From positions 875 through 64,874 of the forward strand of contig JBEBKA010000004.1 in the NCBI GenBank assembly GCA_040079595.1: a stretch of 64,000 bases of DNA, given 5' to 3'. Origin of the DNA: Gallionella sp. (GTDB lineage Bacteria; Pseudomonadota; Gammaproteobacteria; Burkholderiales; Gallionellaceae). Position 1 is the stretch's first letter. Each line of letters starts with the position of its first letter. The notes under the pieces are model-generated. The model ran no database searches. It was given only the letters and a program-made list of their open reading frames with translations, and was not told the DNA's origin. Positions 3,483 through 45,927 of the stretch are shown one piece after another. Made by a program: the position numbers and the translations under genes.

Positions 3483-3543
3483 ACATAATTACGCGATTCT
3501 CAGTATCCACCTGATGCCAAATTATCAACGCTACGAAATTCAC

Positions 3544-4094: not shown

Positions 4095-4173
4095 ATTTGT
4101 TAGTGATAGCTTTCCACCTGGTTATGGGTTTAAACGGGTTGCAATAAGGCAGGCAGCAATCAGCATGACGAAC

Positions 4174-5556
4174 TCAATATCCACCCGAAGCCAAATTATC
4201 GAAGCGGGTATATTCACCTCGAAATGCAAGTGACACCATTCCAATAGGTCCATTACGCTGCTTACCTATAATGATTTCGGCTTTGCCTTTGTCGGGGGAG
4301 TCGTTGTTATAGACCTCATCGCGGTAAATAAACAAAATTAAATCGGCATCTTGTTCAATCGCGCCGGACTCACGCAAATCGGACATTACGGGGCGTTTAT
4401 TGGGGCGTTGTTCCAAGCTGCGGTTCAATTGCGATAACGCAATGACGGGTACATGTAACTCCTTTGCCAATGCTTTTAGCGAACGAGATATTTCTGAAAT
4501 TTCGGTCGCGCGATTTTCACTCGCCTTGCCTACGTTGGAACTCATCAACTGAATGTAATCGATAACAATTAAGCCCAATCCACCATGCGTCCGATGCAGG
4601 CGGCGTGAGCGCGCGCGCAGCTCCAAGGCAGACAGTGCCGCACTTTCGTCGATAAAGATAGGCGCGTCATTCAGCTTGCCCAGTGCGTGGGTTAAACGGC
4701 CCCAATCGTCATCCTGCAATTTACCCGTGCGCAAATCATGTTGATTGAGCTTGCCCACCGAACCCAACATACGCATCACCAGCTGCGAGCCTCCCATTTC
4801 CATACTGAAAATTGCTACGGGCAATTTGCTGTCCAATGCGACATTTTCGGCGATGTTGATGGAGAACGCCGTTTTACCCATACTGGGACGACCCGCGACA
4901 ATGATCAAATCGCCAGGCTGCAAACCAGAAGTCATGCGATCCAAATCGGTAAACCCCGTCGCCGTGCCGGTTACATCGCTGCTGTTATCGCGCCCGTACA
5001 ATGTCTCGATACGCTCGACCACCTGAGTTAACAGCGGTGGCATCGACATAAATCCTTGCTTGCCTCGCGAACCTGCTTCGGCGATCTCAAATACTTTTTT
5101 CTCGGCTTCATCGAGCAGTTGTGCGGCATCGCGCCCCGTTGGGTTGTAAGCACTACTGGAAATATCGCTACCCACTTCCACTAGTTTTCGCATGATAGAA
5201 CGCTCGCGCACAATCTCGCCATAGCGTCGCACATTGGCAGCAGACGGTACATTCTGCGCCAATCCACCCAAATACGGCAAGCCGCCCACATCCCCTAATT
5301 TCCCTGCAATCTCCAATGCCTCAGCCACCGTGATGACATCAATCGGTTTTGCCAACTCACTCAGACGCACGATTTGTTGATAGATTAAACGATGCTCTTT
5401 GCGGTAAAAATCACTCTCGTTAATCAAGTCGGCAATTTTGTCTAACGCACTCGATTCGAGCAACAGCCCACCCAATACTGATTGCTCCGCTTCTACCGAG
5501 TTTGGAGGTAATTTGATCTCGTCAATCTGTGCGTCTGAGTTAGAAAAATTTTGCAT
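4174..5556 (-). CDS. dnaB: Replicative DNA helicase
   Basis: LPPNSVEAEQSVLG, GRPSMGKT Walker A, IDYIQLM, SDLRESGAIEQDAD. Confidence 0.97.
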   Translation of the reverse strand: MQNFSNSDAQIDEIKLPPNSVEAEQSVLGGLLLESSALDKIADLINESDFYRKEHRLIYQQIVRLSELAKPIDVITVAEALEIAGKLGDVGGLPYLGGLAQNVPSAANVRRYGEIVRERSIMRKLVEVGSDISSSAYNPTGRDAAQLLDEAEKKVFEIAEAGSRGKQGFMSMPPLLTQVVERIETLYGRDNSSDVTGTATGFTDLDRMTSGLQPGDLIIVAGRPSMGKTAFSINIAENVALDSKLPVAIFSMEMGGSQLVMRMLGSVGKLNQHDLRTGKLQDDDWGRLTHALGKLNDAPIFIDESAALSALELRARSRRLHRTHGGLGLIVIDYIQLMSSNVGKASENRATEISEISRSLKALAKELHVPVIALSQLNRSLEQRPNKRPVMSDLRESGAIEQDADLILFIYRDEVYNNDSPDKGKAEIIIGKQRNGPIGMVSLAFRGEYTRFDNLASGGY

Positions 5557-7441: not shown

Positions 7442-8455
7442 ATGCTGCCTGATGCGATAGCGACTGCGGAAAAACATCTGCGCGACATTCTGGCATTGGC
7501 GATACAGCACGATGAAGCGCGGTCTGCTTTGGTTGTGTTTGATACCCGTTCCGACCTTGCGGTCACGCTCACCGCCGCCTATCGCCGCTGCCTGCCGACC
7601 GCCGTATTTATTGATTTTGACGCGGTTACTCCCGAAGCGATTTTTACCGAATTTGCCAAGTTAGTTGCTGCCGATTTAGTGGTGCTGATTCAATCCACCA
7701 ACTTTCGCTTGGAAGCATTTCGCATTCGCGTCGAATTGTTCAAACGCGGTTTCAAGGTAATCGAACACCCGCACCTAGGGCGTATGCCAGATAAACAAGC
7801 CGACTATTACATTGAGTCTCTGGCTTATGACCCCGCGTATTTTCGCGGCGTGGGCAACGCTTTGAAGCAGCGTATTGATAGCGCGGTTCATGGCGTGATT
7901 GATAGCGGCGGCGAACAACTGGCATTTGGCTCACCCTTTGAACCCGCCAAGCTCAACGTCGGCGACTACAGCGAGATGAACAACGTCGGCGGGCAATTCC
8001 CCATCGGTGAAGTGTTTACCGAAGCGCAAGACTTGGAAGCCGTGAACGGACGGGTGCGCATTTTTGCCTTTGGCGATACCTCGTTTTCCACTAACAAACC
8101 CACCCAGCCTATTACTTTAGTCATCAGCAAAGGCAAGGTTGTCGATACGCTCAATTCCACGTCGGAATTTGAGCTCGTGCTTGCCAATATCCGCGCCGAC
8201 GAAGGCGAAGTCTGGCTGCGCGAACTCGGCTTCGGCTTGAACCGCGCGTTCACCCAGAACAAAATTGTCAGCGACATTGGCACGTATGAACGCATGTGCG
8301 GTATCCATTTATCGCTTGGCGCGAAACATGGAGTGTACAGCAAAGAGCTGATTAGACGGGCTACTGCGCGGCATCATGTCGATGTGTTTGCAGTTACGGA
8401 ATCGGTTAGCTTGGGTGATGAGGTTGTTTATTGGGATGGGGCTTGGCAGGTCTAA
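7442..8455 (+). CDS. Peptidase M29/leucyl aminopeptidase-like protein
   Basis: PIGEVFT, RELGFGLN, ERMCGIHLSLG and C-terminal HHVDV resemble the thermophilic-metalloprotease (M29) fold. Confidence 0.5.
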   Translation: MLPDAIATAEKHLRDILALAIQHDEARSALVVFDTRSDLAVTLTAAYRRCLPTAVFIDFDAVTPEAIFTEFAKLVAADLVVLIQSTNFRLEAFRIRVELFKRGFKVIEHPHLGRMPDKQADYYIESLAYDPAYFRGVGNALKQRIDSAVHGVIDSGGEQLAFGSPFEPAKLNVGDYSEMNNVGGQFPIGEVFTEAQDLEAVNGRVRIFAFGDTSFSTNKPTQPITLVISKGKVVDTLNSTSEFELVLANIRADEGEVWLRELGFGLNRAFTQNKIVSDIGTYERMCGIHLSLGAKHGVYSKELIRRATARHHVDVFAVTESVSLGDEVVYWDGAWQV

Positions 8456-8474: not shown

Positions 8475-9929
8475 TTATTGAGCCAAGATTTTCCTATACA
8501 CCGCTTGATAAGCCTCTGCACTCACTTCCCAACTGAAATTTTTCGTCATACAATTTTTCTGCAAAGCTTGCCACTGGCTAGGCTGATGATAAAGATTCAC
8601 CGCGCGTTGTATCGTGGCAAATAAATTTTCTGCGGTCATAGCATTAAACGAAAAGCCGCTTGCTGAGCCAGCATTAAGCATTTCCTCGGTGCAATCCACT
8701 ACAGAATCTGCTAATCCACCCGTCTCGTGGACAATAGGTGGTGTGCCGTAGCGTTGGCTATAAAACTGGTTCAGCCCACAGGGTTCAAAACGTGATGGCA
8801 TGACGAATATATCCGAACCCGCTTCGATTAGATGTGAAAGTGACTCGCTGAAACCAATATGCGCGGCAATTTTCCCGGCGTAGCGTTTGGACAATTCCAA
8901 TGCGGCATTCTGCATCGCTACATCACCACTACCGAGCATGACTAACTGCACAGGCAATTCAACCAATCGCGGTGCAATCTCCAGCAATACGTCCAATCCC
9001 TTCTGCTGCGTAAAGCGGCTCACTACACCGAGTAGCGGCACGGAGGAGTCAACTCTCAAGCGCATTCGGTATTGCAACAAACCTTTATTTTCAGACTTAT
9101 GAGACAAATTTTGAGCGTCATATGATCGCTTCAAAAACTTATCCGCAGCAGGATTCCATTCATCGGTGTCTATGCCATTGAGTATGCCCGTGAGGCTATC
9201 ATTACGCTCAGTGAGTAAGCCTTGCAACCCGAAACCTAATTCCGCCTGTTGAATTTCTTTGGCGTAAGTTGGGCTGACCGTGGTGATGTGATTAGCGTAA
9301 ACCAAGCCTGCTTTTAGGAAAGATAGGTTGCCGTAAAACTCCACACCCTGCATAGAAAAACATTCGGGGGGTAACTGCAACTCAGCGACGGTTGTTGGCG
9401 GAAAATTTCCCTGAAAGGCAAGATTATGTATCGTCACCACACTAGGTACAGCACCCTGTAAGAAGTGTAAATAAGCTGGCGCAAGCCCCGTTTGCCAATC
9501 GTTGCAATGGATTAAATCGGGATGCCACTCCAGTGGTGATTCGCCGCTGCCCAACACTGCCGCCACTTTAGACAACAAGCCAAAGCGTAGCGCGTTGTCA
9601 GCCCAATCTTGCCCGCTCGTATTTTGATACGGACCACCCTCGCGCCGAAATAAATCAGGACAATCCAGAACCAATAAAGGCAGACCATTAGCCATTTTCG
9701 TGGACAATAATCGTGCAATCGGAAAGCCTGTTAGTGCACCAAACGTAGCGAGTACCTCATACTCCCCAAGTTGATTGAACACTTGTGTGTAACCTGGCAA
9801 CAGCACCTGCACATCTATGCCAATTGCGCGCAATGCAACGGGCAGAGCGGCACTCACGTCTGCCAGACCACCTGTTTTAATCAGTGGCGCGATTTCTGAA
9901 GTTGCAAACAAAACCTTTAATTTTGGCAT
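8475..9929 (-). CDS. glgA: Glycogen synthase
   Basis: KTGGLADV, HCNDWQT, TIHNLAFQG, PSRFEPCGL. Confidence 0.96.
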   Translation of the reverse strand: MPKLKVLFATSEIAPLIKTGGLADVSAALPVALRAIGIDVQVLLPGYTQVFNQLGEYEVLATFGALTGFPIARLLSTKMANGLPLLVLDCPDLFRREGGPYQNTSGQDWADNALRFGLLSKVAAVLGSGESPLEWHPDLIHCNDWQTGLAPAYLHFLQGAVPSVVTIHNLAFQGNFPPTTVAELQLPPECFSMQGVEFYGNLSFLKAGLVYANHITTVSPTYAKEIQQAELGFGLQGLLTERNDSLTGILNGIDTDEWNPAADKFLKRSYDAQNLSHKSENKGLLQYRMRLRVDSSVPLLGVVSRFTQQKGLDVLLEIAPRLVELPVQLVMLGSGDVAMQNAALELSKRYAGKIAAHIGFSESLSHLIEAGSDIFVMPSRFEPCGLNQFYSQRYGTPPIVHETGGLADSVVDCTEEMLNAGSASGFSFNAMTAENLFATIQRAVNLYHQPSQWQALQKNCMTKNFSWEVSAEAYQAVYRKILAQ

Positions 9930-10002
9930 TTCAAAACAAATGACTTCATTCGTGCGCCATCCTAATTGATTCGTTTTTATTTACAACTGAACTTTATGAA
10001 GT

Positions 10003-10428
10003 TTAGTTAATTGTTGCACCCGTTTGCTTCAACAATTCACGCGCTTTACTTGCCATTTCATGCTCGGGATTAAGGTCCAACATTTTCTGCCAAACGGCAC
10101 GCGCACCAACCAAATCACCTTTAGCATTCTGGATGAGGAAACCTAGATTGATATAGGCTTGCCCGAAGCTCGAATCTTTTGCAATCACGTCACGGAAAGC
10201 TTGTTCGGCTTGGCTAAGATTCTCATTGCGCCAATACATCGCACCCAAATCGGTACGCACGCCAGGCAAGTCTGGATTGATGTCCAACGCGATGCGGTAA
10301 TACACAATCGCTTGAGCAGCGTTGCCCTCGTCATAGTAATAATTGCCCAATGCCAAAGCGGCATCAATATCAGATGAATCCGCGTTAAGGCGTTCTTTGT
10401 AAAGTGTAATGGTGATTTGATCGCTCAT
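10003..10428 (-). CDS. TPR repeat protein
   Basis: Repeated A..LG..YY...G....A...Y..AL..NP TPR pattern. Confidence 0.8.
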   Translation of the reverse strand: MSDQITITLYKERLNADSSDIDAALALGNYYYDEGNAAQAIVYYRIALDINPDLPGVRTDLGAMYWRNENLSQAEQAFRDVIAKDSSFGQAYINLGFLIQNAKGDLVGARAVWQKMLDLNPEHEMASKARELLKQTGATIN

Positions 10429-10531
10429 GGTTCTATTCCTAACAAGTTAAATGAAGTTAAAAAATCTAGTACAACTAAAAATCTTACTGCTCTGCATTGA
10501 GTCCCGATTATAGCAAAGCCTCGTTAAATAC

Positions 10532-11104
10532 TCAGCGCAACAATTCACGCACCGGCTTAAAGCTTTTGCGATGCACCGCTGAAACACCATGCTCGCGCAG
10601 TGCGGCGAGATGTGCCGCTGTGGGATAACCTTTGTGATCGGCAAAACCGTAATATGGATATTGATTATGCAACTCCAACATCAGTGCGTCACGCGCCGTT
10701 TTTGCCAAGATAGAAGCGGCAGAAATAGCGGCGACTTTACTATCGCCTTTGACTATCGCTTGGCTGGGAATGCCTGTTTGTGGGCAGTATAGACCATCGA
10801 CCAATACTTGCTGTGGCTGGATGTTGAGTGACAGCACAGCGCGCTTCATCGCTAACAATGTGGCTTGCAGGATGTTGAGTTGGTCAATTTCTTCGACTTC
10901 AGCGTAAGCGACTGCCCATGCCAACGCACGTTCACGAATGATCGAGGCAAGTTTATCGCGCTGTTTTTCGGAGAGTTTTTTGGAGTCGGCTAAACCTTCA
11001 ATTGGATTCGCATCATCGAGTATCACCGCTGCCGCACTGACCGGCCCCGCAAGTGGACCACGCCCGGCTTCATCTACGCCGCAGATGAGTACCAAATTAG
11101 GCAT
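10532..11104 (-). CDS. rnhB: Ribonuclease HII
   Basis: [32 protein letters not shown]; overlaps lpxB stop. Confidence 0.96.
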
Positions 11105-12251
11105 TCGGTAGGTAAGGCAAGATAGCCGCTGCGGCTTTTTGTGCCGTGTTTTGCCGCAAGGTTTGATGCAGTGCCAAGAAAGTCTCTTCAAGTTGCGCAA
11201 CGGCAGTTTTGTCATTCATCAAATTCAACAATGCTTGCGAAATATTTTCAGGTGTCGCATCGTCTTGCATCAACTCTGGCACCACAAAACGTTCGCACAA
11301 TATGTTCGGCAAACCAAAATAGGGCTGATAACTTTTGCGCTTCATCAATCGCCAAGTTAACTTCGGCATACGATAGGTAATCACCATGGGACGCTTAAGT
11401 AGTGCCGCTTCCAACGTCGCCGTACCAGACGCAACCAACACCGCATCGGCTACAATCATGGCATCTTGCGCATGGCCAAACAGCAAGGTAATCGGCAATT
11501 CTTGAGCATCACAATCATACAGTGCTTGCTCAACAATCGCACGCGTTTCACGGCTAATCAACGGCATTAAAAATCGCGCATCGGGGATTTTCTTTAGTAT
11601 CAGCTTTGCGGTTTCGATATAGACATGTGCAAGTTGAGTCACTTCGCTTTGGCGACTACCGGGCAACAATGCAAACACTTTAGCTTGCAATGGAATGCGC
11701 ATCGTCTCGCGCATCTCATCCCGTTTGGGGAAATCAGGCAGCATGTCCGCCAGCGGATGACCTACATATTCGACAGGCACGCCCGCATCTTCATACAGCT
11801 TGGATTCGTGCGGGAACAGTGCCAGTACTTTTGAAACGGCACGCTTGATTTTATGGATGCGCTCACCGCGCCATGCCCATATCGACGGGCTTACATAATG
11901 GATGGTGATAATGCCTTGCTGCTTCAGCGCGAGCTCCAAATCCAAGTTGAAATCGGGCGCATCAATGCCGATGAAAATATTCGGACGGTTCGCCAGAAAA
12001 TGGCTGCGCAGCTTGCGGCGTATACCGATAATTTCCAGATAATGGCGCAACACTTCAACATAGCCGCGCACCGCCAATTTCTCCATCGGGAACAAGCTGT
12101 TCATGCCCGCCGATTGCATCTTCGCACCGCCGATACCAATGAATTCGATGTCGGGTTGGATTGCTTTTAATGCCAACATCAAGTGACTGCCGAGCAAATC
12201 ACCCGATGCTTCGCCCGCGACAATACCGATTACGATTTTTTTTTGCGACAT
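11097..12251 (-). CDS. lpxB: Lipid-A-disaccharide synthase
   Basis: [29 protein letters not shown]. Confidence 0.96.
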
Positions 12252-13483: not shown

Positions 13484-14508
13484 GCGTCTTTTCCTATCTT
13501 CTTCTCTAATGTTTTAACGCGTTTAACTAACGCTTCTAAGTGACGCAAATGCACCGCGTTGGCACGCCACTCTTCGGTTTTTGAAAATGGGAAAATCGCG
13601 GTGTAAGAACCCGCTTCACGTATTGATTTACCGATCAACGAGAACGCGGAAATTTCAACCCGATCGGCGATTTGCAAATGACCCAAGATACCCGCGCTGC
13701 CACCAATCAAGCAATACTTGCCTATCGTGGTGCTGCCTGCAATGCCCACACAGCCAGCGATTGCGGTATGCGCACCAATGCGAACGTTATGTGCAATCTG
13801 AATTTGGTTGTCCAACTTTACGCCGTCTTCAATCACCGTGTCATCCAATGCGCCACGATCAATTGTGGTGTTCGCACCAATCTCCACATCATTACCTATC
13901 ACCACGCGGCCGATTTGCGGAATCTTGATCCAGCGACCCTCATCCATCGCAATGCCAAAACCATCGCCGCCGATAACCACGCCGGAATGCGCAATCAAGT
14001 TGTTGCCAATCACACAATCGTGATAAATCACCACGCGTGGATACAGGCGCACATGACTACCAATCACTGTGTTATCGCCGACATAACAGCCCGCACCAAT
14101 CACGCTGTGCGCGCCTATTGTCGCGCCCGCACCGATAACTGCCGCCGCTTCTATACAAGCGGTTTTATCTATCGTGGCGGAGTCACTCACCGTTGCCGAG
14201 GGATGCACACCTGCAATCACTTGCGGCAATGGGTTGAGCAAAGCCGACACTTTGGCAAAATAGGCGTAAGGATTATTCGAGATGATGCGCGGCAGCTCGG
14301 TCGCATCGGCATCCGCCTCACCCAATATCACCGCGCCCGCTTTTGTGCTGGCAAGCTGTGCGCGGTATTTGCTGTTGGTGAGGAAACTGATTTGGTTCGC
14401 TTGCGCTTTTTCTAGCGTGGTAACTTGAGCGATGCGCACCGCTGCGTTGCCCAAAATGCGACCACCCAACTGCGCAGCAATTTCAGATAAGGTGTATGAA
14501 ACGGTCAT
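13480..14508 (-). CDS. lpxD: UDP-3-O-acylglucosamine N-acyltransferase
   Basis: [32 protein letters not shown]. Confidence 0.97.
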
Positions 14509-14520
14509 GCGGATACCTGC

Positions 14521-15033
14521 TTATTTGCCCGCTTTATCATCCGCCAAGTGTTGAATCACTTTGTCGGTAATGTCGATTTTAGGGTTGCGGTACACGGCTT
14601 CCTGCAAAATCAAATCGAATTTTTCGGTCTCGGCAATCGCCTGTATGGTTTTATTAGCGCGTTCCAACACGATTGCGAGCTCCTCATTTTTACGCAGATT
14701 CAAATCTTCGCGGAACTCGCGCTGCAAACGTTGCGCGTCCGCATTCATCGTGGTCAGTTCACGTTCTTTATTGCGCTGATCGGCATCGGACAGCGTTACG
14801 CCTTCTTTTTCAAGCAAGGACTGCAAATCCTTGGCTTGCTTCATCAGTGCTTTAATATCCAAATCGCGCCCGGAAAATTCTTTAGTGATGCGCTTCTCCG
14901 CATTCACCGCAGGCGCAGATTCACGCAAAATTCGCTCGGTATCCACCACGCCGACTTTGAAATCTGCCGCTACTGCAACCATGCCAGAACACAACAAAAC
15001 AGAAAGTGCTACACCCTTAAATATCGTCTTCAT
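14521..15033 (-). CDS. skp: Periplasmic chaperone Skp/OmpH
   Basis: Signal peptide, KVGVVD, C-terminal DITDKVI; between bamA and lpxD. Confidence 0.9.
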   Translation of the reverse strand: MKTIFKGVALSVLLCSGMVAVAADFKVGVVDTERILRESAPAVNAEKRITKEFSGRDLDIKALMKQAKDLQSLLEKEGVTLSDADQRNKERELTTMNADAQRLQREFREDLNLRKNEELAIVLERANKTIQAIAETEKFDLILQEAVYRNPKIDITDKVIQHLADDKAGK

Positions 15034-23177: not shown

Positions 23178-23897
23178 TCAACTGACCCGGACTAGCGTGC
23201 CTTCACCCTCACCCATCACCACACGTTTCAAAGCACCCAGCTTGAATATACTGAACACGATGATCGGTAGTTTTTGGTCACGGCACAAGGTCAGTGCGGT
23301 CGCATCCATCACTTGCAAATTCTTGCTGATCGCCTCGTCAAAACTCAGACTTTGATAGCGAATCGCATTCGGATCTTTCTTAGGATCAGCCGTATAAATG
23401 CCATCCACCTTGGTGGCTTTGATCACCACTTCAGCGCACATCTCGACACCCCGCAACGCAGCAGCGGTGTCGGTCGTGAAGAATGGGCTACCAATACCCG
23501 CCGCAAAAATAACGACCTTGCCATCTTCCAGATAACGCAGTGCTTTGCCACGAATAAATGGCTCGGCAACTTGCTCCAGATTCAGTGCAGACTGTACGCG
23601 GCAATCCAACCCCGCGCGTGTCATGGCATCTTGCAACGCCATCGAATTCATCACCGTCGCCAACATGCCCATGTAATCGGCAGTCGCTCTATCCATGCCT
23701 GCCGCAGCGGGCGCGACACCACGGAATATATTGCCGCCACCAATCACAATCGCCACTTGCACGCCCAGCCCAACCACTTCCGCAATTTCCGCCACAATAC
23801 GTTCAATCACAGCGCGATTGATACCATAGCTGTCGTCGCCCATCAGGGCTTCGCCGCTTAGCTTGAGTAGGATACGTTTATAGGCAGGCGTGTTCAT
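23178..23897 (-). CDS. pyrH: UMP kinase
   Basis: [28 protein letters not shown]. Confidence 0.97.
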
Positions 23898-36170: not shown

Positions 36171-37025
36171 TCAAGGCTTCAAACGATACAGCCGCTTAGG
36201 CAAAGTCAGTCCTTTGATTTTGTCAAACCGATCACCCATCGCCGCATCCAGTTTTTGTAACCGTGTGTCGGGGTGCGGGTGAGTTTTGAATAACAAGGCC
36301 ACGTTGCTGTCATCGGCAGCGTAATGCCCGATTTGCTGCAACACGCCGGGCAGTCCAAAAGCATCGTAACCCGCGCGGGCTGTGAGTACCACGGCAATGC
36401 GATCGGCCTCAAACTCGGCATCCTGATCGAGTGAACGCGCAGTGATTTCCGCGCCACTGCCAATCAACTTTTGCACCTTGTCGCTATTGCTGACTTTTTT
36501 GGCGATTGCCTGACCACCCAAATCCAACAGGCGACTCTTCTGCAAAATTTTCAGGTGATGCTTGCTGATGACATGACCGACTTCATGCGCCAACACACCA
36601 GCCAACTCCGCCTCGTTTTGCAACAACGCATACAAGCCGCGAGTTACAAAAATATAACCGCCTGGTGCGGCGAAAGCATTCACATCGGTTGATTCAATTA
36701 CGCCGAAGTGCCACGGAAGATCGGGACGCTCGCTTTGATTCGCCACCCATCGACCCACGCGATTCACATATTGCTGCAAACCTGCATCATTCACCAATGG
36801 CGCAGCCCCCAGCAGATTGCCCGCGATTTGACGACCGATGGCGACTTCATCGTCTTGCGAAGTTTTGCCTAATGCATCCACAACATTGCTCACGCGCTCT
36901 TTGACCTGTTCTGGCAATTGCTCTTTGAGTTTGTCGCGTAATTGCTGACCGAAGTCCAAAGCGAATGAAGTGGTGAATACACTGCACATAAACAATGTGG
37001 ACAAGCCCCGAAATAATGTTCTCAT
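36171..37025 (-). CDS. M48 family metallopeptidase (BepA/Oma1-like)
   Basis: NAFAAPGG, LAHEVGH (HExxH), EFEAD, THP; signal peptide. Confidence 0.9.
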   Translation of the reverse strand: MRTLFRGLSTLFMCSVFTTSFALDFGQQLRDKLKEQLPEQVKERVSNVVDALGKTSQDDEVAIGRQIAGNLLGAAPLVNDAGLQQYVNRVGRWVANQSERPDLPWHFGVIESTDVNAFAAPGGYIFVTRGLYALLQNEAELAGVLAHEVGHVISKHHLKILQKSRLLDLGGQAIAKKVSNSDKVQKLIGSGAEITARSLDQDAEFEADRIAVVLTARAGYDAFGLPGVLQQIGHYAADDSNVALLFKTHPHPDTRLQKLDAAMGDRFDKIKGLTLPKRLYRLKP

Positions 37026-37546
37026 TTCGCACCCTCCTGCAAATAATCCATTGTTCGAGTTTTGAGCTTGCCTTGTGCGGCGAATTGCCGTGCTTGCGCT
37101 TGGCTGACAGTGTATGACTCTGCGAGCGTGAGTTGTTCCGCATTGAATTGAGCAGACTTTAATTCCTCTTCACTCAAACCGCGTATGCCGGTTGTTGCCA
37201 CCACCTTGCCTGTCCCTGCCCGTCCAGAAGCCAGTGCCAACAAGCCGCCCGCGTTATTGGCTGCCTTCCCCGAACCCGTTTTGCGTATGCTCAACATGCG
37301 TACCCAGCCATTACCTTTTTGGCTTTTCACTTTCAACCAGCCACCGTCTTTGGTGAGGATTTCCACCTTGTCACCACTCGCCAGCGAACCCACCTTTTTC
37401 GCGTCACGAAAGGGTTCAGTTTTGATGTCATCCGCCTTCAATGCACTGCCGCTTTCTGTTGTTACAGTGGCAACCTTGGCCTTGGCGGCGATTGCTGGGG
37501 TAACAAACAGCCCCAGCAACAATAATCCTATTCCAATGTTTCTCAT
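37022..37546 (-). CDS. Secreted SH3-domain protein
   Basis: Signal peptide, GDKVEIL...GWLKV...GWV SH3b pattern; ATGA-coupled to M48. Confidence 0.8.
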   Translation of the reverse strand: MRNIGIGLLLLGLFVTPAIAAKAKVATVTTESGSALKADDIKTEPFRDAKKVGSLASGDKVEILTKDGGWLKVKSQKGNGWVRMLSIRKTGSGKAANNAGGLLALASGRAGTGKVVATTGIRGLSEEELKSAQFNAEQLTLAESYTVSQAQARQFAAQGKLKTRTMDYLQEGAK

Positions 37547-37560
37547 TTCGGCGTTTCCTC

Positions 37561-37632
37561 TTGTTTTGATTGTTGCCATGCTATCAAGGCCTCAGCGAAC
37601 ATCACCCGCCAACTTACCTTCGCCTTTTTACC
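37561..37632. repeat. Direct repeat, left copy (relic of the original CHASE2 3' end)
   Basis: 66/72 identical to 42175-42246; first 30 nt identical. Confidence 0.92.
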
Positions 37633-37768
37633 TCAGGGGCGCGTACCAAAAATATATCTCATGCCGTTATCTTCCATGCTGAGTGCGTTGCACCGCAAGG
37701 GTACTCCGATTTGCTAAGTGCTAAAGCACTTGCAAAGTCGTATGCGTCGTTCGCAGCACACTTTGCAC

Positions 37769-37797
37769 TTGCCGTGGTGAAATTATTTCCATAGAAT
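37769..37797 (+). promoter_or_regulatory. Sigma70 promoter of TA operon, probably leaderless
   Basis: TTGCCG-N17-TAGAAT, then 6 nt, then ATG 37804; no Shine-Dalgarno. Confidence 0.6.
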
Positions 37798-37803
37798 CCA
37801 CCC

Positions 37804-38040
37804 ATGACAAAAATGCACGCACAGAATGATTGGCGTATTCGTATCAATGGTGGTGAGTCGCATCCACTGCCCCATGTGCATGTCGAATTTCGTGACGGGA
37901 TGCGGGTATCGGTGGCGATTGAGTCGTTGGCTGTGTTAACGGGTGTGGTGCGCCCGCTCAAGCGGTTGAATGATCCGTTGGCTTGGGTGTCTAGCCACAA
38001 AGAAGAGTTGATTGAAGAATACTGGAGGCTAAACAGATGA
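37804..38040 (+). CDS. DUF4160-family protein, predicted type II toxin
   Basis: HPLPHVHV motif, C-terminal EELIEEYW; ATGA-coupled to DUF2442 gene. Confidence 0.8.
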   Translation: MTKMHAQNDWRIRINGGESHPLPHVHVEFRDGMRVSVAIESLAVLTGVVRPLKRLNDPLAWVSSHKEELIEEYWRLNR

Positions 38041-38477
38041 AAAATCCCCCTGCTATTTTGGCAGTGCGCGTGGTTGATACGCTGACCTTGGAATTGGACT
38101 GGAGTACCAAGGAAACTTTGCGCCTTAACCTTGCGCCGCTGGTGCGTAAGCTCGCTGCCTTCGCGCCGCTTAAAACTCCCGCCGTATTCGCCAAGGTGCG
38201 CGTGGATGATTGGGGACACGCTTTGGAGTGGCCGAAAGGATTGGATATGGGGGCGGACAGGTTGTATGAGTTGAGCCGAGAGCAAGCGGGTTTGCCCACT
38301 GCCAGACAGTTTAACGCGTGGATGGCGCAACACAATCTTTCGTTGACCGATGCGGCGAATGTGCTGGGCATGACGCGCCGCATGATGACCTATTACCGCA
38401 CGGGCAGCCGTCCTATTCCCAAGGTGGTGATGTTGGCGTGCAAGGGCTGGGTTGCCGAGAGTACACGTCGCCACTAG
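38037..38477 (+). CDS. DUF2442 + HTH protein, predicted antitoxin
   Basis: LELDWST...LEWPKGLDMGADRLY, then HTH LSLTDAANVLGMTRRMMTYY. Confidence 0.8.
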   Translation: MKNPPAILAVRVVDTLTLELDWSTKETLRLNLAPLVRKLAAFAPLKTPAVFAKVRVDDWGHALEWPKGLDMGADRLYELSREQAGLPTARQFNAWMAQHNLSLTDAANVLGMTRRMMTYYRTGSRPIPKVVMLACKGWVAESTRRH

Positions 38478-40637
38478 ATTAGTGCCGTCCCCACCGTGCA
38501 GCGTGTCGTCTCTTCCATTGCCCGAAATGGTGTCATTGTTTTGATCTCGGATGTCGTTTGACTTTAACGCCCGCAACAACGCGCTCATGCCCGCCAAATC
38601 AGTGCCAAGTTGATTGCCATATTGCGCCACCCATTTTGTCAGCTCACTCGGAGGGGGCGTGGTATCTGCCTTGACGATTTGACCTTGACCCGCCGCGCTC
38701 GCATCCGCCAATACCACCAGTCCCTGCAAGTCTTGATTTAATTGCTCACCGCCCGCAGAAAAGTTTGCCAAGGTGATTACGCTGGCAGCCATGCTCGCAT
38801 CAATCCCGTCTTGAAACTCCGCCGCCACGCCGTTTACAAAGGCAATACCGATCACCTTGGTGCTGCCCGCATCGGCTTTGTTACTACCCGTGTACTCAAC
38901 CTTCCACACCACCACTCTGCCGTCCGATAGGGTGGTGGTCATGGTGTTATTGGGGTTGAGTGTGGCGGTGAAAGACGGCGGCGCGCCGTTGACGCTGAGG
39001 GTGTATTGGTTGGTGACGGTATCAAATTCGGTTTTGACAAAGTCATTGTTCATGACATCGGTGACCGAGTCGATATGTCCCAGCACATCATGCGAAATCA
39101 CACTGCTATTGCCATTGGGGGCGTAGATCACTTTGATGGCACTTTGGTCAGCCCCCGAATAATTTGATTCGGCAACGCGACCGTTTATGTAAGTATTTGA
39201 ACCGCTGCTGCCCTCAATCGTGTTACTCCACACATCCACCACAGACGAACTATTGGCATCAAGAATCTGGGTGGTGATAAAGCCCTGCCCGTCATCCCTC
39301 ACCACCATCGTGCCATCCACACCCGATTTGGACGTGATGCGCTCCCCAGTCTGGGCGTTATAAACCGATGCCGTAAACGTCCCGTCCAGATTATCCCTCA
39401 AGCGGCTATAACTTCCGTCCGCATTCTCATATTGGGACATCGTCACCACCCCCGTGGTGAGTGACGTTGTAATATGCTCGTAATCGCCGTTAGCCAGCTG
39501 ATAGGTCGTCCGATCATAACCAGCCGCCTTGTTACGTTCGGTCACCACACTGGTCAGGTCGGTGTTATATACCACCTTGGTATAACTGCCGCTGCCAAAG
39601 CTGGTCATCACCTCTGCCACCGTGCCATCCGAGCGGAAAGTCGTAAAATTCGTATGGGTCAATATGCCAGAAACAGGGTCTTTCCATTGGGTGGTTTCCG
39701 TCCAACCGCCCTTGCCCGTTTGGTCGGGCATTTTCCAAACATCGTGATCGGCGTATTTAAGGTAAGTCACCTCGTTCTCGTAAATGCGACCAGTGTAGTT
39801 GGGGCCGTTGAGTTCCAAATAAGTGGAGCCTAGATCGATGTAAGCAGACAATCCGCCAATGAGATTGGGCGAGGCAATGCCTTTGGTGATGCTGACCCCA
39901 GGTATCAACACTTCACCATTAGCGTTGCTGCCAAGTGCGCCACACAAATACTGAATCGTGGAGGAGGGCACGCTGCAAATAGTACTGGTCGGAAATGCGC
40001 CTATGGTTTTACCATTTGCATCATAAACTTGCTTTCCCCAGTTGGTGATAGCCATGATTGAGCCAGGATTTTGGCTTAATAAATCCTGAATGCTTTGGGT
40101 GTAATTTGAAGAGCCACCAACATAATACTCAAACTGCACATCACCCAGCGCAAACACCCCAAACGCTACCAAGCCCGCAAGACCCTTAGCCGTCAGAGCG
40201 AGAAATGGGGCGGCGGCGGCAGGCTGATTGTAGGCAAGATAATTGATAGCAATCAGTAAGTTGCCAGGGAAGTATTCACCAATCCCCTTCTTAGCCCATA
40301 CGTCGTATGCGCCCACAAGCATCGCTTGGTCATCGGGTACTTTGAAGTTTCCATTCCCGTCAGAAACAATTGAATCCATATCTGCTTTTGCAACTTCTCG
40401 AGAGGCCTGCTGAACGCCACCCGGCCAGTACTTCGACAACAACACGTTGTACGCCTCATTACCCGCCCAAGCCCCGCCACCAAACGGGCCGGAAGCAGAC
40501 GAAATTTGCGACATAAACAACGCCGTCGTGCTGCCCGTATATTCATAAAGTGCCACGTAAAATGCCACACGGTTATCGGTGTCGATCAAGTTTTGCAGAT
40601 TGGCACGTTGTTGGGCGGTAATGATGGGATTGAGCAT
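38478..40637 (-). pseudogene. RTX/T1SS-type secreted protein truncated at its first Ca-binding repeat (~720 codons)
   Basis: N-terminal globular domain, hydrophobic helix, T/D/G-rich beta repeats, ends NDTISGNGRDDTLHGGDG at the TA junction; no C-terminal secretion signal. Confidence 0.6.
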
Positions 40638-40660
40638 GATGACCTCTTGTGATTGTACGT

Positions 40661-41422
40661 TTACGGGGTAACAACAAAGGATTGAATCAGAGTTTGTGTT
40701 TTAGCGTGTATATCCGCCCACTGGGGAAGCAAAATTCTTTTATAACTTATGGTCAACGGCAAGCCCCATAAGGTAGAAGTGAATGCAGAACAGCCATATT
40801 TTTGCTCGGTTGCCAAATCAATGTTGTCTTCATACCCACAGTGAATAAAAGTTCGAGGATTGGGTTCTAACGGCAGCAAATACTGAAAACCATGCCAAGG
40901 CTCTTCTAAGTACTGATCCAGTCCGTGCAGTAAATTCGGTACGTGAGATGGCTTGGGCGTACCAAGTGAATAGTTTTTTAGGCTTTCCTTAGCATCGTAT
41001 GCAGTCACGTCCCCCGTAATGGCAATTTCAATTTTGTGTGTGTCCCATCGCTGCCACAGCGGCACACTGTACCAAGGCTGCATACTGGGGTAGGCTACCT
41101 CCAAACCTTGCCTTTCGCCTGCCACATGACGGGAATAATCAAACCGCCCCCCGCCCACAAAATAATCTCGTGGGATTCGGAGTGTCAGGGTTTCGAGACA
41201 CTGATGCTGTGGCGTGCCAAAGTGGATGCTTTTTCCGCAATAACTCAACTCCACTGGGGCAAGTGGCGGTGCGCCTTTCCACAATGCGTATCCACACCAA
41301 CCCAACACCAGCAGCGTGATTAAAAGCATGAACACAATGACAGGGGATAACTTCGCAGCCTTGGGTGCGGACTTGAACTGTTGGTCAGTTAAAGCGGGCT
41401 GATTCGCATCCTGTTTTTTCAT
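40661..41422 (-). CDS. Membrane-anchored periplasmic protein, candidate immunity protein
   Basis: Single N-terminal TM, Cys pairs, TLRIPRDY; 23 bp upstream of the RTX-like gene. Confidence 0.55.
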   Translation of the reverse strand: MKKQDANQPALTDQQFKSAPKAAKLSPVIVFMLLITLLVLGWCGYALWKGAPPLAPVELSYCGKSIHFGTPQHQCLETLTLRIPRDYFVGGGRFDYSRHVAGERQGLEVAYPSMQPWYSVPLWQRWDTHKIEIAITGDVTAYDAKESLKNYSLGTPKPSHVPNLLHGLDQYLEEPWHGFQYLLPLEPNPRTFIHCGYEDNIDLATEQKYGCSAFTSTLWGLPLTISYKRILLPQWADIHAKTQTLIQSFVVTP

Positions 41423-41554
41423 GCTCGTGTTATCCCTTGTTGGGTGTGCTGCTTCGCTTCATTGCTCAATATGAAAAGGTCAGTCAGTTTTCTCATTTCA
41501 CACTTCCTGATTCAACACCCCGCCCAACGCTAAAGTGCTTTGCAATTTGTCGCG

Positions 41555-42160
41555 TTAATAAAAGAACCGCATTCCAATATCCACCGTATTGACCGCAGGA
41601 GCTGAACCACTCTGATTGGACGCAATCCCCGCCATCAATTGAAACTGCGGCATCACCTTAAACCCAAGTTGGAACTTCACGCCTGTCATGGAGGTGGTGG
41701 AGCTGGATGAGCCTACCGTAGAGCTTGCATAACTCACACTGAGTCCGCCTTCAAATTGTGGTGTAAATTCGCTGCGGATGCCTATCCCCAAAATACGGCT
41801 GTCCCCGGTGAGCGATGTACCCGCCGCAGAGGAGGTGATTTTGCGGTAGCGACCCGTGACAATGAAATCGGTGTTGGTTTTAATCGGGGTGTGGTATCCC
41901 GCACCGAGTATCCATCCTTTGGCCGACACATCCCCAAACGATGTGCCTGTGACCTGCTTGCCTGTTTGGTATTCCCCTTCGAGAAACACATTGCTGCTGA
42001 TGCCTTTGGTGAGATTGAAATTGGTCATGTTCAAATCACGCTTGCCACTTTGGCTCATCCTTTCATAGCTGAGTTGGGCGGCATCGTAACTCAGCTCTGC
42101 CAAAGCAATGGCGGGAGTGAGTAAGGTAGCAAGTGCAATTACGGTAGTTAATTTTTTCAT
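41555..42160 (-). CDS. Outer membrane beta-barrel protein
   Basis: Signal peptide MKKLTTVIALATLLTPAIALA, alternating beta strands, C-terminal GMRFFY. Confidence 0.8.
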   Translation of the reverse strand: MKKLTTVIALATLLTPAIALAELSYDAAQLSYERMSQSGKRDLNMTNFNLTKGISSNVFLEGEYQTGKQVTGTSFGDVSAKGWILGAGYHTPIKTNTDFIVTGRYRKITSSAAGTSLTGDSRILGIGIRSEFTPQFEGGLSVSYASSTVGSSSSTTSMTGVKFQLGFKVMPQFQLMAGIASNQSGSAPAVNTVDIGMRFFY

Positions 42161-43866
42161 GATTTTCCTTGAGGTTGTTTTGATTGTTGCCATGCTATCA
42201 AGGCTTCGGCGAACAACACCCGCCAACTTGCCTTCGCCTTCTCACCGCCCGCAATCACGCGCTGATACACAAACCACTCTGCTACATTTTTCGTGTCGGT
42301 CAAATGCTTGCCCAGCAAGGCTGGCAATGCCGCGATGACGACTTCCGCATCTTGGGCAAAAAGAAGGTGCGCGGTACTGTCCTGCGCGGATGATACCCAT
42401 GACACGGCATAAGTTTTTTCCAACAAACCCCACAGTCCTTTTTGCCCGCCGCTCAACACCTCCACACTTTTTGTTTCACTGCTGCATGTTTCCAAGCGAT
42501 AGCGAATATCTTCTATCGACATGTCGATGAGCAAGCCGGAATCGAGGCGTATCAATAATAGCGTGGCTTGCAGCTCGCCTGTTTGCTGCATCGAGGTGCG
42601 CAGCGTATTTTTTTCCAACACTTTCCCGGTGGCAGCGGAATACATCCGCGCAAAGCCAAAGAAGGTCAACGCGAATGAAATAGGTCCGGTCAGATTGATG
42701 TAGGTGGTGCTGAAATTGATGCTGGCGTAAGAAATTCCCAACAAAATAAATTGCGACGCGCCAAACCAGAGATCCACTTTCCCCATACTGAAGCCGCGAT
42801 AAAAGCCCCACGCCGTCACCCAAATAAGTGTCAGTGCCAGTAACAGGTAAGGGATGTGTGCATCGGGGAAGCGCAGGTAATCGTCATGCTTGAAGTTGTC
42901 GATTGCCGTGGCGAGTATCTCCACCCCCGGATGCATCTGGCTCATCGGCGTGGGTTTGATGTCAAACAAACTCGGCGCGGTCGAACCGATGATGATGATT
43001 TTGTCTTTGAACTCATCGGCAGGACGATGCTTTTCTTTGCTGGTTAAATCTTGGAATACATCCGAAAAACTGACAAACTGGTAAGTGAAAGGTTCGCCGC
43101 GCCAGTTCAGCAGCACGCGCTGCGCTTGCGGTGTTGCCCAGTTCAACTCCTTGCCGATACGCGCGGGCAGCGAAGGAATTTTCCAACCGTAATCCGCGCT
43201 ATACACCAGATATTGCCGCGCAACGGCATCGTCGTCAGGATAGATATTGTGCAACCCTAGTCGCCCGCTATTCAACGCCGATTGAAAGTGCGGCAACACC
43301 ATCGCTACCGTGGCATCTTGCTGCACGCCTTGAGTACCCTGCTCCACACCAGGAATCGCAGACGCTTTGATTTGGCTTAACGAATCACTGGAAGGGTCGA
43401 GTCGTAATATCGGAAAAAACGTGTTGTCCGTTTTGGCAATGGCCGCGTCAAAATACGCATCGCTGTCTGCGTTGTACAGGTCGGCATCGCTGAACAGAAT
43501 GTCGAACACGATCGCTTTGGGATGTTGTTTTTCAACCTGCTCGACAAACTCGCCCAACACTTGGCGCGGCCACGGCCAACGACCGTAATCTTTCGCCATC
43601 GCCGCCAGGCTCGCCTCGTTAATGTCCACGATAACGATGTCGGGATCAGGCTTGGGCTTCACGATGCGATAGTGCAACATGCTATCAAACGCCGCCTGAC
43701 GCACCTCCGCCGTGAAATGAAAAAACGAGTTATCTGCCACAGCAAAAATCGTAAACAGCCCAGCGAGGTACAGATAAAAGGTATTTTTCCAATAGCGTGC
43801 CAACAGCGCGGCGACGGCTGCGTAGCTGCGTTTCCAAGTGCTGATGATGAAAATGATGGGGTTCAT
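42157..43866 (-). CDS. CHASE2-domain membrane sensor without a recognisable output domain
   Basis: IVIVDINEASL, GRWPWPR, FDILFSD, IIIGSTA, HPGVEILATAIDN, three TM helices. Confidence 0.88.
   Translation of the reverse strand: MNPIIFIISTWKRSYAAVAALLARYWKNTFYLYLAGLFTIFAVADNSFFHFTAEVRQAAFDSMLHYRIVKPKPDPDIVIVDINEASLAAMAKDYGRWPWPRQVLGEFVEQVEKQHPKAIVFDILFSDADLYNADSDAYFDAAIAKTDNTFFPILRLDPSSDSLSQIKASAIPGVEQGTQGVQQDATVAMVLPHFQSALNSGRLGLHNIYPDDDAVARQYLVYSADYGWKIPSLPARIGKELNWATPQAQRVLLNWRGEPFTYQFVSFSDVFQDLTSKEKHRPADEFKDKIIIIGSTAPSLFDIKPTPMSQMHPGVEILATAIDNFKHDDYLRFPDAHIPYLLLALTLIWVTAWGFYRGFSMGKVDLWFGASQFILLGISYASINFSTTYINLTGPISFALTFFGFARMYSAATGKVLEKNTLRTSMQQTGELQATLLLIRLDSGLLIDMSIEDIRYRLETCSSETKSVEVLSGGQKGLWGLLEKTYAVSWVSSAQDSTAHLLFAQDAEVVIAALPALLGKHLTDTKNVAEWFVYQRVIAGGEKAKASWRVLFAEALIAWQQSKQPQGKS
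42175..42246. repeat. Direct repeat, right copy (current CHASE2 3' end)
   Basis: Matches 37561-37632 with 6 mismatches. Confidence 0.92.
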
Positions 43867-44112: not shown

Positions 44113-45927
44113 ATGTCTCGCGCACTCCGTAATATCGCCATTATCGCCCACGTTGACCACGGTAAAACCACCATGGTTGATAAACTGCTTACCCAAGCAG
44201 GCTCTTTCTCCGCCCACCAGCACGTCGCTGAACGGGTGATGGACAATAACGATTTGGAAAAAGAACGCGGAATTACCATTCTGGCGAAAAACTGTGCGGT
44301 GGATTACGAAGGCGTACATATCAACATCGTGGATACACCGGGTCACGCCGATTTCGGCGGCGAAGTAGAGCGTGTGTTGGGCATGGTGGACGGCGTGTTG
44401 CTGTTAGTGGATGCGGTTGAAGGGCCGATGCCGCAGACACGTTTCGTGACCAAAAAAGCATTGGCTTTGGGTTTGCGCCCTATCGTGGTTATCAATAAAG
44501 TAGATCGTCCGGGTGCGCGTTGCGACTGGGTGATCAACCAAACTTTCGATTTGTTCGACAAGCTCGGCGCATCGGAAGAGCAGTTGGACTTCCCAGTGGT
44601 TTATGCATCTGCATTGAACGGCTATGCGACCTTGGATTTAGCGAAGCCCAGCACGGATATGCGTCCCTTATTTGACACGGTGTTGAAGAATGTTCCTGCA
44701 CCTGCCGCAGCGGCGATGGATGAGCCGTTACAGCTGCAAATTTCCGCTTTGGAATACTCCAGTTTTGTCGGTCGTATCGGCGTGGGTCGCGTGTTGCGTG
44801 GTCGCATCAAGCCCGGTCAAGAGGTGATGGTCATGAATGGCGAGAAGTCATCCAAGCGCGGCCGTATCAACCAAGTGCTGGGCTTTCAAGGCGTGGATCG
44901 CTATTTAATGGACGAAGCGAAAGCGGGCGACATCGTGTTAATCAATGGTATTGATGAGATCGGTATCGGTGTGACCATTGCCGATATCAACAAGCCGGAA
45001 GCTTTGCCTTTGCCCAAGGTAGATGAGCCAACCTTAACCATGAACTTAATGGTGAATACTTCTCCATTGTGCGGACAAGAAGGTAAGTTCATCACCAGCC
45101 GTCAGATTCGTGATCGCTTGACTAAAGAGTTGTTGGTCAACGTGGCATTGCGTGTTGATGAAACCGATAACACCGACGTGTTCCTATTGGCAGGTCGAGG
45201 CGAATTGCACTTGACCATCCTGTTGGAAAATATGCGCCGCGAAGGTTTTGAGATGGGCGTGGGTAAACCGCGTGTGGTTTACCGCGAAATCAACGGCGAG
45301 AAATGCGAACCGTTCGAAGTGCTGACCGTTGACGTAGAAGATGCCAACCAAGGCGCGATCATGGAAGAGCTGGGTCGTCGTCGCGGCGATTTGCAAGACA
45401 TGCAGCCGGATGGTCACGGTCGCGTGCGTTTGGAATACCGTATTCCAGCGCGTGGTCTGATTGGTTTCCAGTCTGAATTTATGACGTTGACGCGCGGCAC
45501 TGGAATTATGGCGCACGTGTTTGATGACTACGCACCGGTGAAGGCGGATATGCCAGGTCGCCGCAACGGCGTGCTGATCTCTGCCGAGCAAGGCGATGCG
45601 GTAGCTTACGCGTTGTGGAAACTGGAAGATCGCGGTCGCATGATTGTAGTTCCGGGCGACAAATTGTACGAAGGTATGATTATCGGTATTCACAGCCGTG
45701 ACAACGATCTAATCGTTAACCCGATCAAGGGCAAGCAATTGACCAACGTGCGTGCTTCTGGCACCGATGAAGCGGTGCGTCTGACCCCGCCAGTTCGCCT
45801 GACTTTGGAATCGGCTGTCGAATTCATCGACGATGATGAATTGGTCGAGATTACACCAGTATCGATTCGTGTACGTAAACGCTATTTGACTGAAAACGAA
45901 CGTAAGCGTCAGGTTCGCGGTTTGTAA
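44113..45927 (+). CDS. typA: Translational GTPase TypA/BipA
   Basis: [29 protein letters not shown]. Confidence 0.97.

Follow-up and report, generated by a model that had tools for sequence, protein, structure and literature searches.

A recombinase-free accessory insert at a duplicated CHASE2 gene end in Gallionella and its possible origin by illegitimate duplicative insertion

Insertion with long target duplication (Nobusato et al., 2000; Furuta, Abe and Kobayashi, 2010) is defined operationally by a repeat of more than 30 bp, an insert of less than 20 kb, a lack of mobility genes and a single uninterrupted copy of the repeat in a related genome (PMC2853133). The duplications reported are 46 to ~420 bp long, nearly identical and often overlap the 3' end of a gene; the mechanism was left open and an association with naturally competent species was noted (PMC2853133). 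The locus described here lies in a stretch of 64,000 nucleotides from Gallionella sp. (contig JBEBKA010000004.1 of assembly GCA_040079595.1), referred to as the window. In our numbering the window is G000:C4:875-64874, where G000 is the genome itself, a metagenome-assembled genome (MAG) of 130 contigs. Within it, ~4.54 kb of accessory DNA (37633-42174) is inserted between two copies of the end of a gene for a CHASE2-domain sensor. We consider a one-off illegitimate duplicative insertion of the published kind, followed by decay, to be the best reading of this CHASE2 islet, with a probability of about 0.45.

The CHASE2 gene (42157-43866, minus strand) is intact, encodes 569 aa, matches the Pfam CHASE2 domain at E=1.7e-51 and has orthologues in more than 50 Gallionellaceae loci. 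Its tail occurs twice in the form of 72-nt direct repeats that are identical at 66 of 72 positions, as had been predicted from the sequence and was recovered with a repeat finder and MAFFT. The distal copy is located at 37561-37632 (DR-L) and the proximal copy at 42175-42246 (DR-R), both coding on the minus strand, with a start-to-start spacing of 4614 nt. On the plus strand, the first 30 nt of the two copies are identical and all six mismatches are found in the remaining 42 nt, while the homology ends abruptly at both edges of the pair. Translated on the minus strand together with 18 further nucleotides, the copies read GKKAKVSWRVMFAEALIAWQQSKQEETPK and GEKAKASWRVLFAEALIAWQQSKQPQGKS, each followed by a stop codon, exactly the CHASE2 C-termini quoted in the original prediction. 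A BLAST search of the whole assembly (2.5 Mb, 130 contigs) identified these two copies and no third.

The two copies differ in status. DR-R is the true 3' end of the 569-aa protein and holds the native last conserved block of CHASE2, but the 18 nt that follow it (42157-42174), which encode the last five residues and the stop codon (PQGKS), are foreign and derive from the leader of the inserted outer-membrane protein (OMP) gene. DR-L is a displaced pseudo-tail, with a stop codon and unrelated sequence upstream and the start of an SH3-domain gene downstream (37022-37546, minus strand; Pfam SH3_3, E=1e-8), followed by the gene for an M48 peptidase (36171-37025, minus strand; Pfam Peptidase_M48, E=4.5e-31); both genes are operon partners of CHASE2. 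Directly after DR-L stand the native last six codons of CHASE2 including the stop (EETPK; 37543-37560, minus strand), with a ribosome-binding site (GAGGA) and an ATGA overlap with the SH3 gene; they match the sequences downstream of the tails in three relatives (L049, L082 and G008). The six differences are private to DR-L and are confined to its 5' 42 nt. Read as codons, four of them are non-synonymous and two synonymous, and five of the six are transitions. DR-L is otherwise a tail of the A type, i.e., L049-like, and its private changes introduce K, V and M, residues that are absent from every orthologue at those positions.

The SH3 and M48 genes, both of which adjoin CHASE2 in relatives, have been pushed 4.6 kb away from it by the insert. 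CHASE2 runs directly into SH3 and M48 in 11 of the 12 genus and order relatives that were fetched first, and the same gene order was identified in ~35 further loci from metagenomes and GTDB genomes, so that ~45 empty loci are known besides L049; a comparison of relatives for empty sites had been suggested along with the prediction. Of most value among them is L049 (contig CXWL01104232.1), a near-conspecific metagenome contig with a TypA-CHASE2-SH3 neighbourhood without insert, which is 92-98% identical to the flanks in the window. The CHASE2 tail of L049 is identical to DR-R at 72 of 72 positions and continues with GAGGGAACGCCAAAATGAGAAAC, the sequence that is found after DR-L in the window. 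It follows that DR-R is the native tail and that the 18 nt after DR-L are the native ending. Judged by these comparisons, the 4.6-kb layout is a true insertion into the conserved CHASE2-SH3-M48 operon, and it is relative to this operon that the predicted insertion into the 3' end of CHASE2 holds. Furthermore, one contig of a second assembly (GCA_013141195.1) is 100% identical to window positions 38284-43343, so that the junction between the CHASE2 tail and the OMP gene is carried independently there; this contig does not reach the left junction and breaks inside the toxin-antitoxin (TA) module.

The tail is duplicated in one of the 156 genomes of the genus, which is the present one. No other cargo was found between CHASE2 and SH3 in any relative (~60 orthologous loci, 156 genus genomes), and no plasmid or viral contigs carrying the cargo were identified. 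The idea of a swappable cassette site is thus unsupported, since the site holds no alternative cargo and the tail is doubled in a single genome. Loci of the G013 type, in which CHASE2 is not followed by SH3, were also considered as sites with alternative cargo and were rejected because they contain ordinary housekeeping genes for an alpha/beta hydrolase and a FabF-like protein.

How does the islet compare with the systems described previously? It has a repeat of 72 bp (66/72), which is present as a single uninterrupted copy in the insert-free L049 (72/72) and in ~45 further loci, a size of 4.54 kb, no mobility genes and two copies of the repeat only. The described long target duplications hold the R and M genes of a restriction-modification (R-M) system, whereas no R-M domains were identified in this insert in scans with Pfam and NCBIfam; it has instead a DhiTA-type pair as an addiction-type module, together with unrelated cargo. 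The repeat is also more diverged (92% identity), and one of its junctions has a 6-nt microhomology to a paralogous source. Since the published operational definition applies, except that the R-M system is replaced by a TA pair, the CHASE2 islet is a further case of an already described kind (PMC2853133) and not the new class of gene-targeted cargo that had been envisaged.

The islet also resembles cis-mobilizable elements (CIMEs), which are decayed integrative and conjugative elements (ICEs) or integrative mobilizable elements (IMEs) with a similar layout (PMC5704250), but it contains no ICE or IME relic, shows no accretion with another element and has no intact same-site relative among ~60 loci. 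Likewise, the microcin H47 island of E. coli (Azpiroz et al., 2011) is small, has competition-type cargo and extensive imperfect direct repeats, and lacks a recombinase of its own, as does the CHASE2 islet. The attachment sites of the H47 island are widespread among strains and its RecA-independent excision and integration have been shown by experiment (PMC3191183). The repeat of the CHASE2 islet, in contrast, is simply the end of a gene present once, and only one genome in 156 has an insert there. The prophages or prophage remnants e14 and phage 21 insert into icd in E. coli, with a tyrosine integrase encoded beside the attachment site (att) and a purpose-built replacement gene end. As in e14 and icd, a protein-coding 3' end has been hit here, the gene is functional with a substituted ending and the displaced native end is left downstream as a pseudogene fragment; the differences are that the CHASE2 islet has no integrase and that its new ending arises from read-through into the leader of a neighbour. 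In the C-terminal displacement of rhs and contact-dependent inhibition (CDI) genes, new toxin/immunity cargo is placed behind a short homologous stretch and the old 3' end is pushed downstream as an orphan. The CHASE2 islet shares the toxin/immunity-type cargo and the downstream shift of the old 3' end, but it has hit a sensor gene rather than a toxin gene and only six codons have been displaced.

The proximal junction can be narrowed down to six nucleotides. The first gene of the insert (41555-42160, minus strand) encodes a small outer-membrane beta-barrel of 201 aa with a signal peptide, which is OmpO/Ax21-like according to matches to Pfam OMP_b-brl (E=0.0037) and the NCBIfam OmpO family (E=2.7e-9), both below the cut-offs. 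A paralog in the same genome (G000:C1:52704-53306; 95% aa and 94.7% nt identity) has coq7 on one side and on the other a small islet that is likewise closed by a DUF4160/DUF2442 pair, and there is a homolog with 61% identity in the relative G008; homologs elsewhere follow genes for an ABC exporter and a GerE regulator. In the window, homology to the C1 paralog and the G008 homolog begins at 42180, six nucleotides inside DR-R. These two genes have a leader of ~65 nt in common (...CAATCCAAT..TCACCCTATAAACAACCTCAA..ATG), of which the window retains only the last 20 nt. The switch from the CHASE2 tail to the OMP leader falls in a 6-nt microhomology, AAACAA, that is common to both and located at position -20 of the OMP leader; at a fixed junction, six nucleotides would match by chance with a probability of 2.4e-4. 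The start codon of the OMP gene overlaps the new CHASE2 stop codon (ATGA), which might suggest a cargo designed to plug into the host transcript. We rejected this interpretation because the overlap consists of the ATGAAA start that is native to the OMP gene and also present in the C1 paralog and the G008 homolog.

The remaining cargo corresponds to what had been predicted, that is, an immunity-like gene, an RTX-like gene and TA genes in addition to the barrel, and no recombinase, as checked with Pfam and NCBIfam and, for the fold of the immunity-like protein, with Foldseek. No recombinase domain was found between the repeats in the Pfam and NCBIfam scans, nor any relics of integration, excision, replication or transfer genes. 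The genome has 12 matches to PF00589 (tyrosine recombinase), all of them outside the insert, and the nearest is at ~2200-3300 of the window, ~34 kb away. No anomaly in GC content or skew was detected across the insert.

The second gene (40661-41422, minus strand) encodes p253, a membrane-anchored protein of 253 aa with an N-terminal transmembrane helix at residues 27-50. An AlphaFold2 (AF2) model (pLDDT 74) has 6pdk, the structure of Smlt3025, as its top match in Foldseek (E=1e-7, TM 0.5, over nearly the whole length), and the next match has E>0.1; a profile search of PDB gave 6pdk as its sole match, a very weak one (E=1.1). Smlt3025 is an immunity protein of the bacteria-killing X-type type IV secretion system (X-T4SS) of Stenotrophomonas. 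According to its model, p253 is predicted to have a Smlt3025-like fold and to be exported to the periplasm. No VirB4 was found in the genome, and p253 is not paired with an X-T4SS and an XVIPCD effector; neither does the neighbouring large gene qualify as such an effector, as it has RTX repeats, a missing C-terminus and no domain matches. Homologs of p253 are present in two other Gallionellaceae metagenome contigs (L037, 6367-7125, 81%; L038, 2354-3136, 74%) as single genes between ispF and tsaB, with gaps of 5-14 nt, and no repeats representing tail duplicates of a flanking gene were found beside these copies.

The neighbouring gene, an orphan, is a remnant (38478-40637, minus strand; ~720 aa) of a gene for a large secreted protein. 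Its last residues form two RTX nonapeptides (ISGNGRDDT LHGGDGTNL), and the cut falls in the second of these. The cut coincides exactly with the stop codon of the TA module; the open reading frame then continues to 37659 because its frame reads the antisense strand of the TA genes. Only two partial homologs were found among 5.8 billion proteins and none in 150 genomes of the family. There was no match in Pfam, NCBIfam or PDB from which a function could be read, and the AF2 model of the N-terminal part was unusable (pLDDT 35). A 27-mer inside this remnant (38570-38596) was found in two of 151 genus genomes, this one and G008, with no second copy elsewhere in the present genome. In G008, the identical sequence forms the junction between a duplicate of gspF and a VapBC insert, 220 nt from the OMP homolog.

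The TA module (37804-38477, plus strand) is a DhiTA-type pair, consisting of a gene for a predicted DUF4160 toxin (37804-38040; Pfam E=8e-10) and a gene for a DUF2442 protein with a C-terminal extension (38037-38477; E=1.4e-11), and is convergent with the operon. The gene order is that of DhiTA, with the DUF4160 gene first and a 4-nt overlap (38037-38040); the match to NCBIfam toxin_DhiT (E=6.9e-8, 33 bits) is below the cut-off of 100. The DhiTA family (DUF4160/DUF2442) has been shown by experiment to be a type II toxin-antitoxin system in Dickeya (PMC8198452). Window positions 37758-38463 are 87% identical at the nucleotide level to G000:C76:9061-9766, and this homology stops 14 nt before the TA stop codon. 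C76 is a plasmid- or ICE-like contig of 10.4 kb with a ParM-like gene, a 652-aa tyrosine recombinase located tail-to-tail with the DUF4160/DUF2442 paralog, and a HigB-like gene; it has no terminal overlap and no core-gene fragment that could serve as the element-side attachment site (attP).

Beyond the TA module lies a 58-nt hairpin (37688-37746) similar to repetitive extragenic palindromes (REPs), 89-96% identical copies of which are found in convergent or 3' intergenic spacers on contigs C9, C96 and C53; it has no match in Rfam. The distal end of the insert consists of 55 nt (37633-37687) that end in TGA directly before DR-L. We considered whether these could be a diverged fragment of CHASE2, and rejected this because their similarity to it does not exceed that of shuffled sequences. 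No RNA families were identified in 36900-43000, and the 171-nt spacer folds no better than shuffled sequences. The OMP leader is truncated, the large gene breaks off inside an RTX repeat where the stop codon of the TA module stands, and the TA homology ends 14 nt short. The cargo is thus a patchwork of incomplete copies that begin and end without regard to gene boundaries.

The CHASE2 islet is not the only one of its kind in the genome. A sister islet at recJ (G000:C63:4976-5119 / 8275-8418) is flanked by 144-bp direct repeats of 92% identity that duplicate the last 141 nt and the stop codon of recJ. Its integrase-less insert of 3.2 kb encodes a 241-aa membrane protein, a 313-aa lipoprotein of the metallo-beta-lactamase (MBL) fold and a 170-aa SnoaL-like protein, and recJ adjoins prfB without an insert in G008 and G013. 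In comparison with G008, the outgroup state is found in the 5' part of the intact copy and in the 3' part of the pseudo-copy (IIIIII PPPPIP; permutation p=0.015), and all five changes in the intact copy fall in the last 35 nt (p=8e-4). From the distribution of these sites, the reciprocal mosaic is the signature expected of a crossover between two diverged tails.

Three more imperfect pairs in the same genome are 68-114 bp long and 86-91% identical. One duplicates the 5' end of argS (G000:C53:6012-6125 / 14455-14568), with the pseudo-copy 8.4 kb downstream of the start of the intact gene, which is not the arrangement expected from a simple insertion. The others duplicate part of the 3' region of a cob(I)alamin adenosyltransferase gene (G000:C6:42717-42802 / 44522-44606) and the 5' end of an ABC ATPase gene (G000:C35:19776-19843 / 23402-23469). 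In G008, the complete genome most closely related to this one (L046, G008:C1:58501-78500, positions 9183-11700), gspE and gspF are parted by an ORF6N gene, the OMP homolog, a duplicate of the gspF 5' end (163 bp, 90%) and a VapBC pair on the opposite strand, and it is the junction between repeat and insert that the 27-mer straddles here. Taken over both genomes, the further gene-end pairs are 86-92% identical and 68-163 bp long. Apart from the ordinary REP-like hairpin, no end motif common to the repeat-flanked islets was found, and this absence of any core that they share speaks against one site-specific enzyme for them all. Polarisation of the gspF, cob, argS and ABC pairs with outgroups gave patterns that were too noisy or inconsistent. 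In the present genome, gspE and gspF are located on different contigs (G000:C2:211-1629 and C14:33159-34373), and the gspE-gspF junction that is occupied by an islet in G008 is thus not assembled in one piece. For contrast within the genome, a 92-bp direct repeat of 99% identity (G000:C16:4624-4715 / 14453-14544) beside a 375-aa tyrosine integrase (3513-4640) delimits an ordinary 9.8-kb integrase-bearing island.

The 3' half of the CHASE2 gene (window 42247-43300) is hypervariable and mosaic between near-conspecific genomes, being 57-85% identical to L049 at the nucleotide level, as against 95-98% in the flanks, and closer to the G008 allele. The mosaic of the C-terminal domain suggests allele exchange or diversifying selection on the sensor. 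Informative sites at gene positions 1051-1650 are G008-like or like neither (A:B = 36:100), and they flip to L049-like (13:0 and onward) within a few nucleotides of the 5' edge of DR-R, a phylogenetic breakpoint. Possibly no other conserved block than the 72 nt borders on the hypervariable domain, in which case the same homology boundary would limit both the allele exchange and the repeat.

We hypothesize that the insert of ~4.54 kb entered at the CHASE2/SH3 junction by illegitimate joining independent of a recombinase, either through microhomology-mediated end joining or through template switching. Foreign or paralogous DNA would have been joined at microhomologies, and 72 bp of the target would have been duplicated in the same event. 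In favour of this reading are the microhomology found at the proximal junction, the patchwork nature of the cargo and the descent of DR-L from a tail of the A type. Since CHASE2 and SH3 overlap (ATGA), only an insertion that duplicates the junction keeps both genes intact, which could explain why this insert survived. DR-L would then have decayed in the 42 nt left without function, while the 30 nt beside SH3 were held constant. The divergence of the repeats (8.3%) is of the same order as that of the third positions of the two OMP copies (9.9%), which fits a single event, and the private changes in DR-L give residues unseen in orthologues, as expected from decay and not from a functional foreign tail. 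Furthermore, the element, its junctions and the use of the site are all absent elsewhere, whether in genus genomes, orthologous loci or plasmid and viral contigs. As we see it, the islet would currently be no autonomous mobile unit, and its site no hotspot.

Several observations weigh against an illegitimate insertion of this type. We know of no mechanism yielding target duplications of 72 bp for which there is a demonstrated case in bacteria. That all six differences fall in 42 of the 72 nt (p=0.04) would also be explained by a crossover in the identical 30-nt block, and the reciprocal mosaic of the recJ islet likewise points to a crossover between diverged tails rather than to simple decay. 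The repeat pairs of several islets are all near 86-92% identity, which could reflect the divergence between donor and recipient. Finally, the switch in phylogenetic signal at the 5' border of DR-R does not follow from the duplicative-insertion model.

The clustered differences and the recJ mosaic bring us to the Campbell-type integration favoured in the original prediction, in which a circle enters by a single crossover. Of this proposal the topology fits, with the native tail on the intact gene and the displaced ending at SH3, but the notion of a circle built to carry a gene tail is unsupported, given the AAACAA microhomology in the OMP leader, the OMP gene's own ATGAAA start and the mosaic of truncated copies. 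Entry of a cargo-only circle by any route, all routes taken jointly, is nonetheless quite possible. The homologous version, in which RecA would catalyse a single crossover between the chromosome and a circle with a diverged CHASE2 tail through the identical 30-nt block, we regard as unlikely when taken alone. Such a circle could come from repeat-by-repeat recombination in a related strain and then be taken up. The proximal repeat would consist of the native 5' part, the common block and an arm of the element, and the distal repeat of the 5' part of the element, the common block and the native ending. This B-O-P' ... P-O-B' order is the one observed, with a native DR-R, six differences that are all confined to the 5' part of DR-L, and the native ending behind DR-L, and it is the crossover model that the clustered changes and the recJ mosaic favour; the breakpoint at the edge of DR-R is not a junction in this model either. 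A run of 30 identical nucleotides is about the minimal length for RecA-dependent exchange, and the occurrence of the same kind of repeat pair at unrelated gene ends in G000 and G008, with no motif, is what a homology-driven rather than site-specific process would give. However, a substrate of 72 bp with 92% identity is very poor for homologous recombination, the 5' part of DR-L with its residues unknown in orthologues does not look like a working foreign tail, and neither the junction of tail and OMP gene nor the cargo was found in any other genome, plasmid or viral contig searched. The circle would moreover need the same two illegitimate junctions, one between the tail and the OMP leader at AAACAA and one between the P side and the tail, in addition to its own steps, which makes the illegitimate insertion the more parsimonious of the two.

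The repeats might instead be the left and right attachment sites (attL/attR) of a decayed site-specific element, CIME-like or parasitic in the manner of the H47 island, with an integrase that acts in trans or is no longer present. Both systems are known for islands that lack a recombinase and are bordered by long, imperfect direct repeats (PMC5704250, PMC3191183), the internal truncations show that decay has happened, and there are 12 tyrosine recombinases in the genome. A candidate for the role in trans would be, for example, an enzyme like the 652-aa one on the ParM-bearing, plasmid-like contig C76, next to which stands the 87% identical copy of the TA module. We nevertheless hold this reading to be improbable: the insert has no relics of integration, excision, replication or transfer, no integrase-bearing element occupies the site in ~60 orthologous loci, a search of the genome for the 30-nt core gave no further attP-like copy even with six mismatches allowed, the proximal junction has a microhomology, and the repeats of the other islets are unrelated, so that one enzyme could not serve them all. 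It is more doubtful still that the locus is the remnant of a larger rearrangement, in which a tandem or segmental duplication with a second CHASE2 copy was deleted down to the last 90 nt. The mosaic 3' half of CHASE2, the flip of the phylogenetic signal at the edge of DR-R and the several partial gene-end duplicates in the genome, among them that of the 5' end of argS at a distance of 8.4 kb downstream of the gene, would agree with such a history, but the 55 nt upstream of DR-L have no similarity to CHASE2, tblastn recovers 27 residues of the tail only and no relative has two CHASE2 copies at the locus. Least credible of all is an assembly artefact, i.e., a chimeric join in the MAG, for example inside the TA module or at the REP-like hairpin. 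The genome does consist of 130 contigs, and the left junction is present on this contig only, that of the other assembly breaking inside the TA module. Yet six positions distinguish the two repeat copies, which also have unique flanks of their own, paralogs of the REP and the TA module are only 87-96% identical to the local copies, and the junction of CHASE2 and OMP recurs in the second assembly; the tail fragment before SH3 and the fusion of CHASE2 and OMP would be real even if the contig were misjoined. What probability remains falls to mechanisms outside those considered here.

The islet adds a well-resolved example without R-M genes to the long target duplications, in which the empty site is known, one junction has been mapped to a 6-nt microhomology and the patchwork of the cargo is visible. 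For the cell, the insertion changes the last residues of the CHASE2 sensor, parts the sensor from SH3 and M48, and brings in an immunity-like gene together with a surface barrel. It is probably the TA module that keeps the insert stable. A promoter-like site on the minus strand (37810-37782; TTGTCA-17-AATAAT, 10/12, a consensus match only) is located within the TA promoter region and faces the REP hairpin, DR-L and SH3, and it could drive SH3-M48 after their separation from CHASE2.

Because several sister islets are present in one genome of 2.5 Mb, one of them with a crossover mosaic, the mechanism is testable, and this Gallionella population would be well suited for deciding between illegitimate duplicative insertion and homology-guided integration of circles. 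A bolder hypothesis, which we think unlikely but not far-fetched, is that duplicated gene ends in this lineage mark a recombinase-free, homology-guided traffic of cargo-only DNA. If so, the CHASE2 and recJ islets and the cob, argS, ABC and G008 gspF pairs would all be its products. A circle released through recombination between the repeats would keep one core-gene end as a "homing arm" and re-enter related cells by a single crossover at the same end, and toxin-antitoxin, immunity and surface genes would thereby spread without an integrase.

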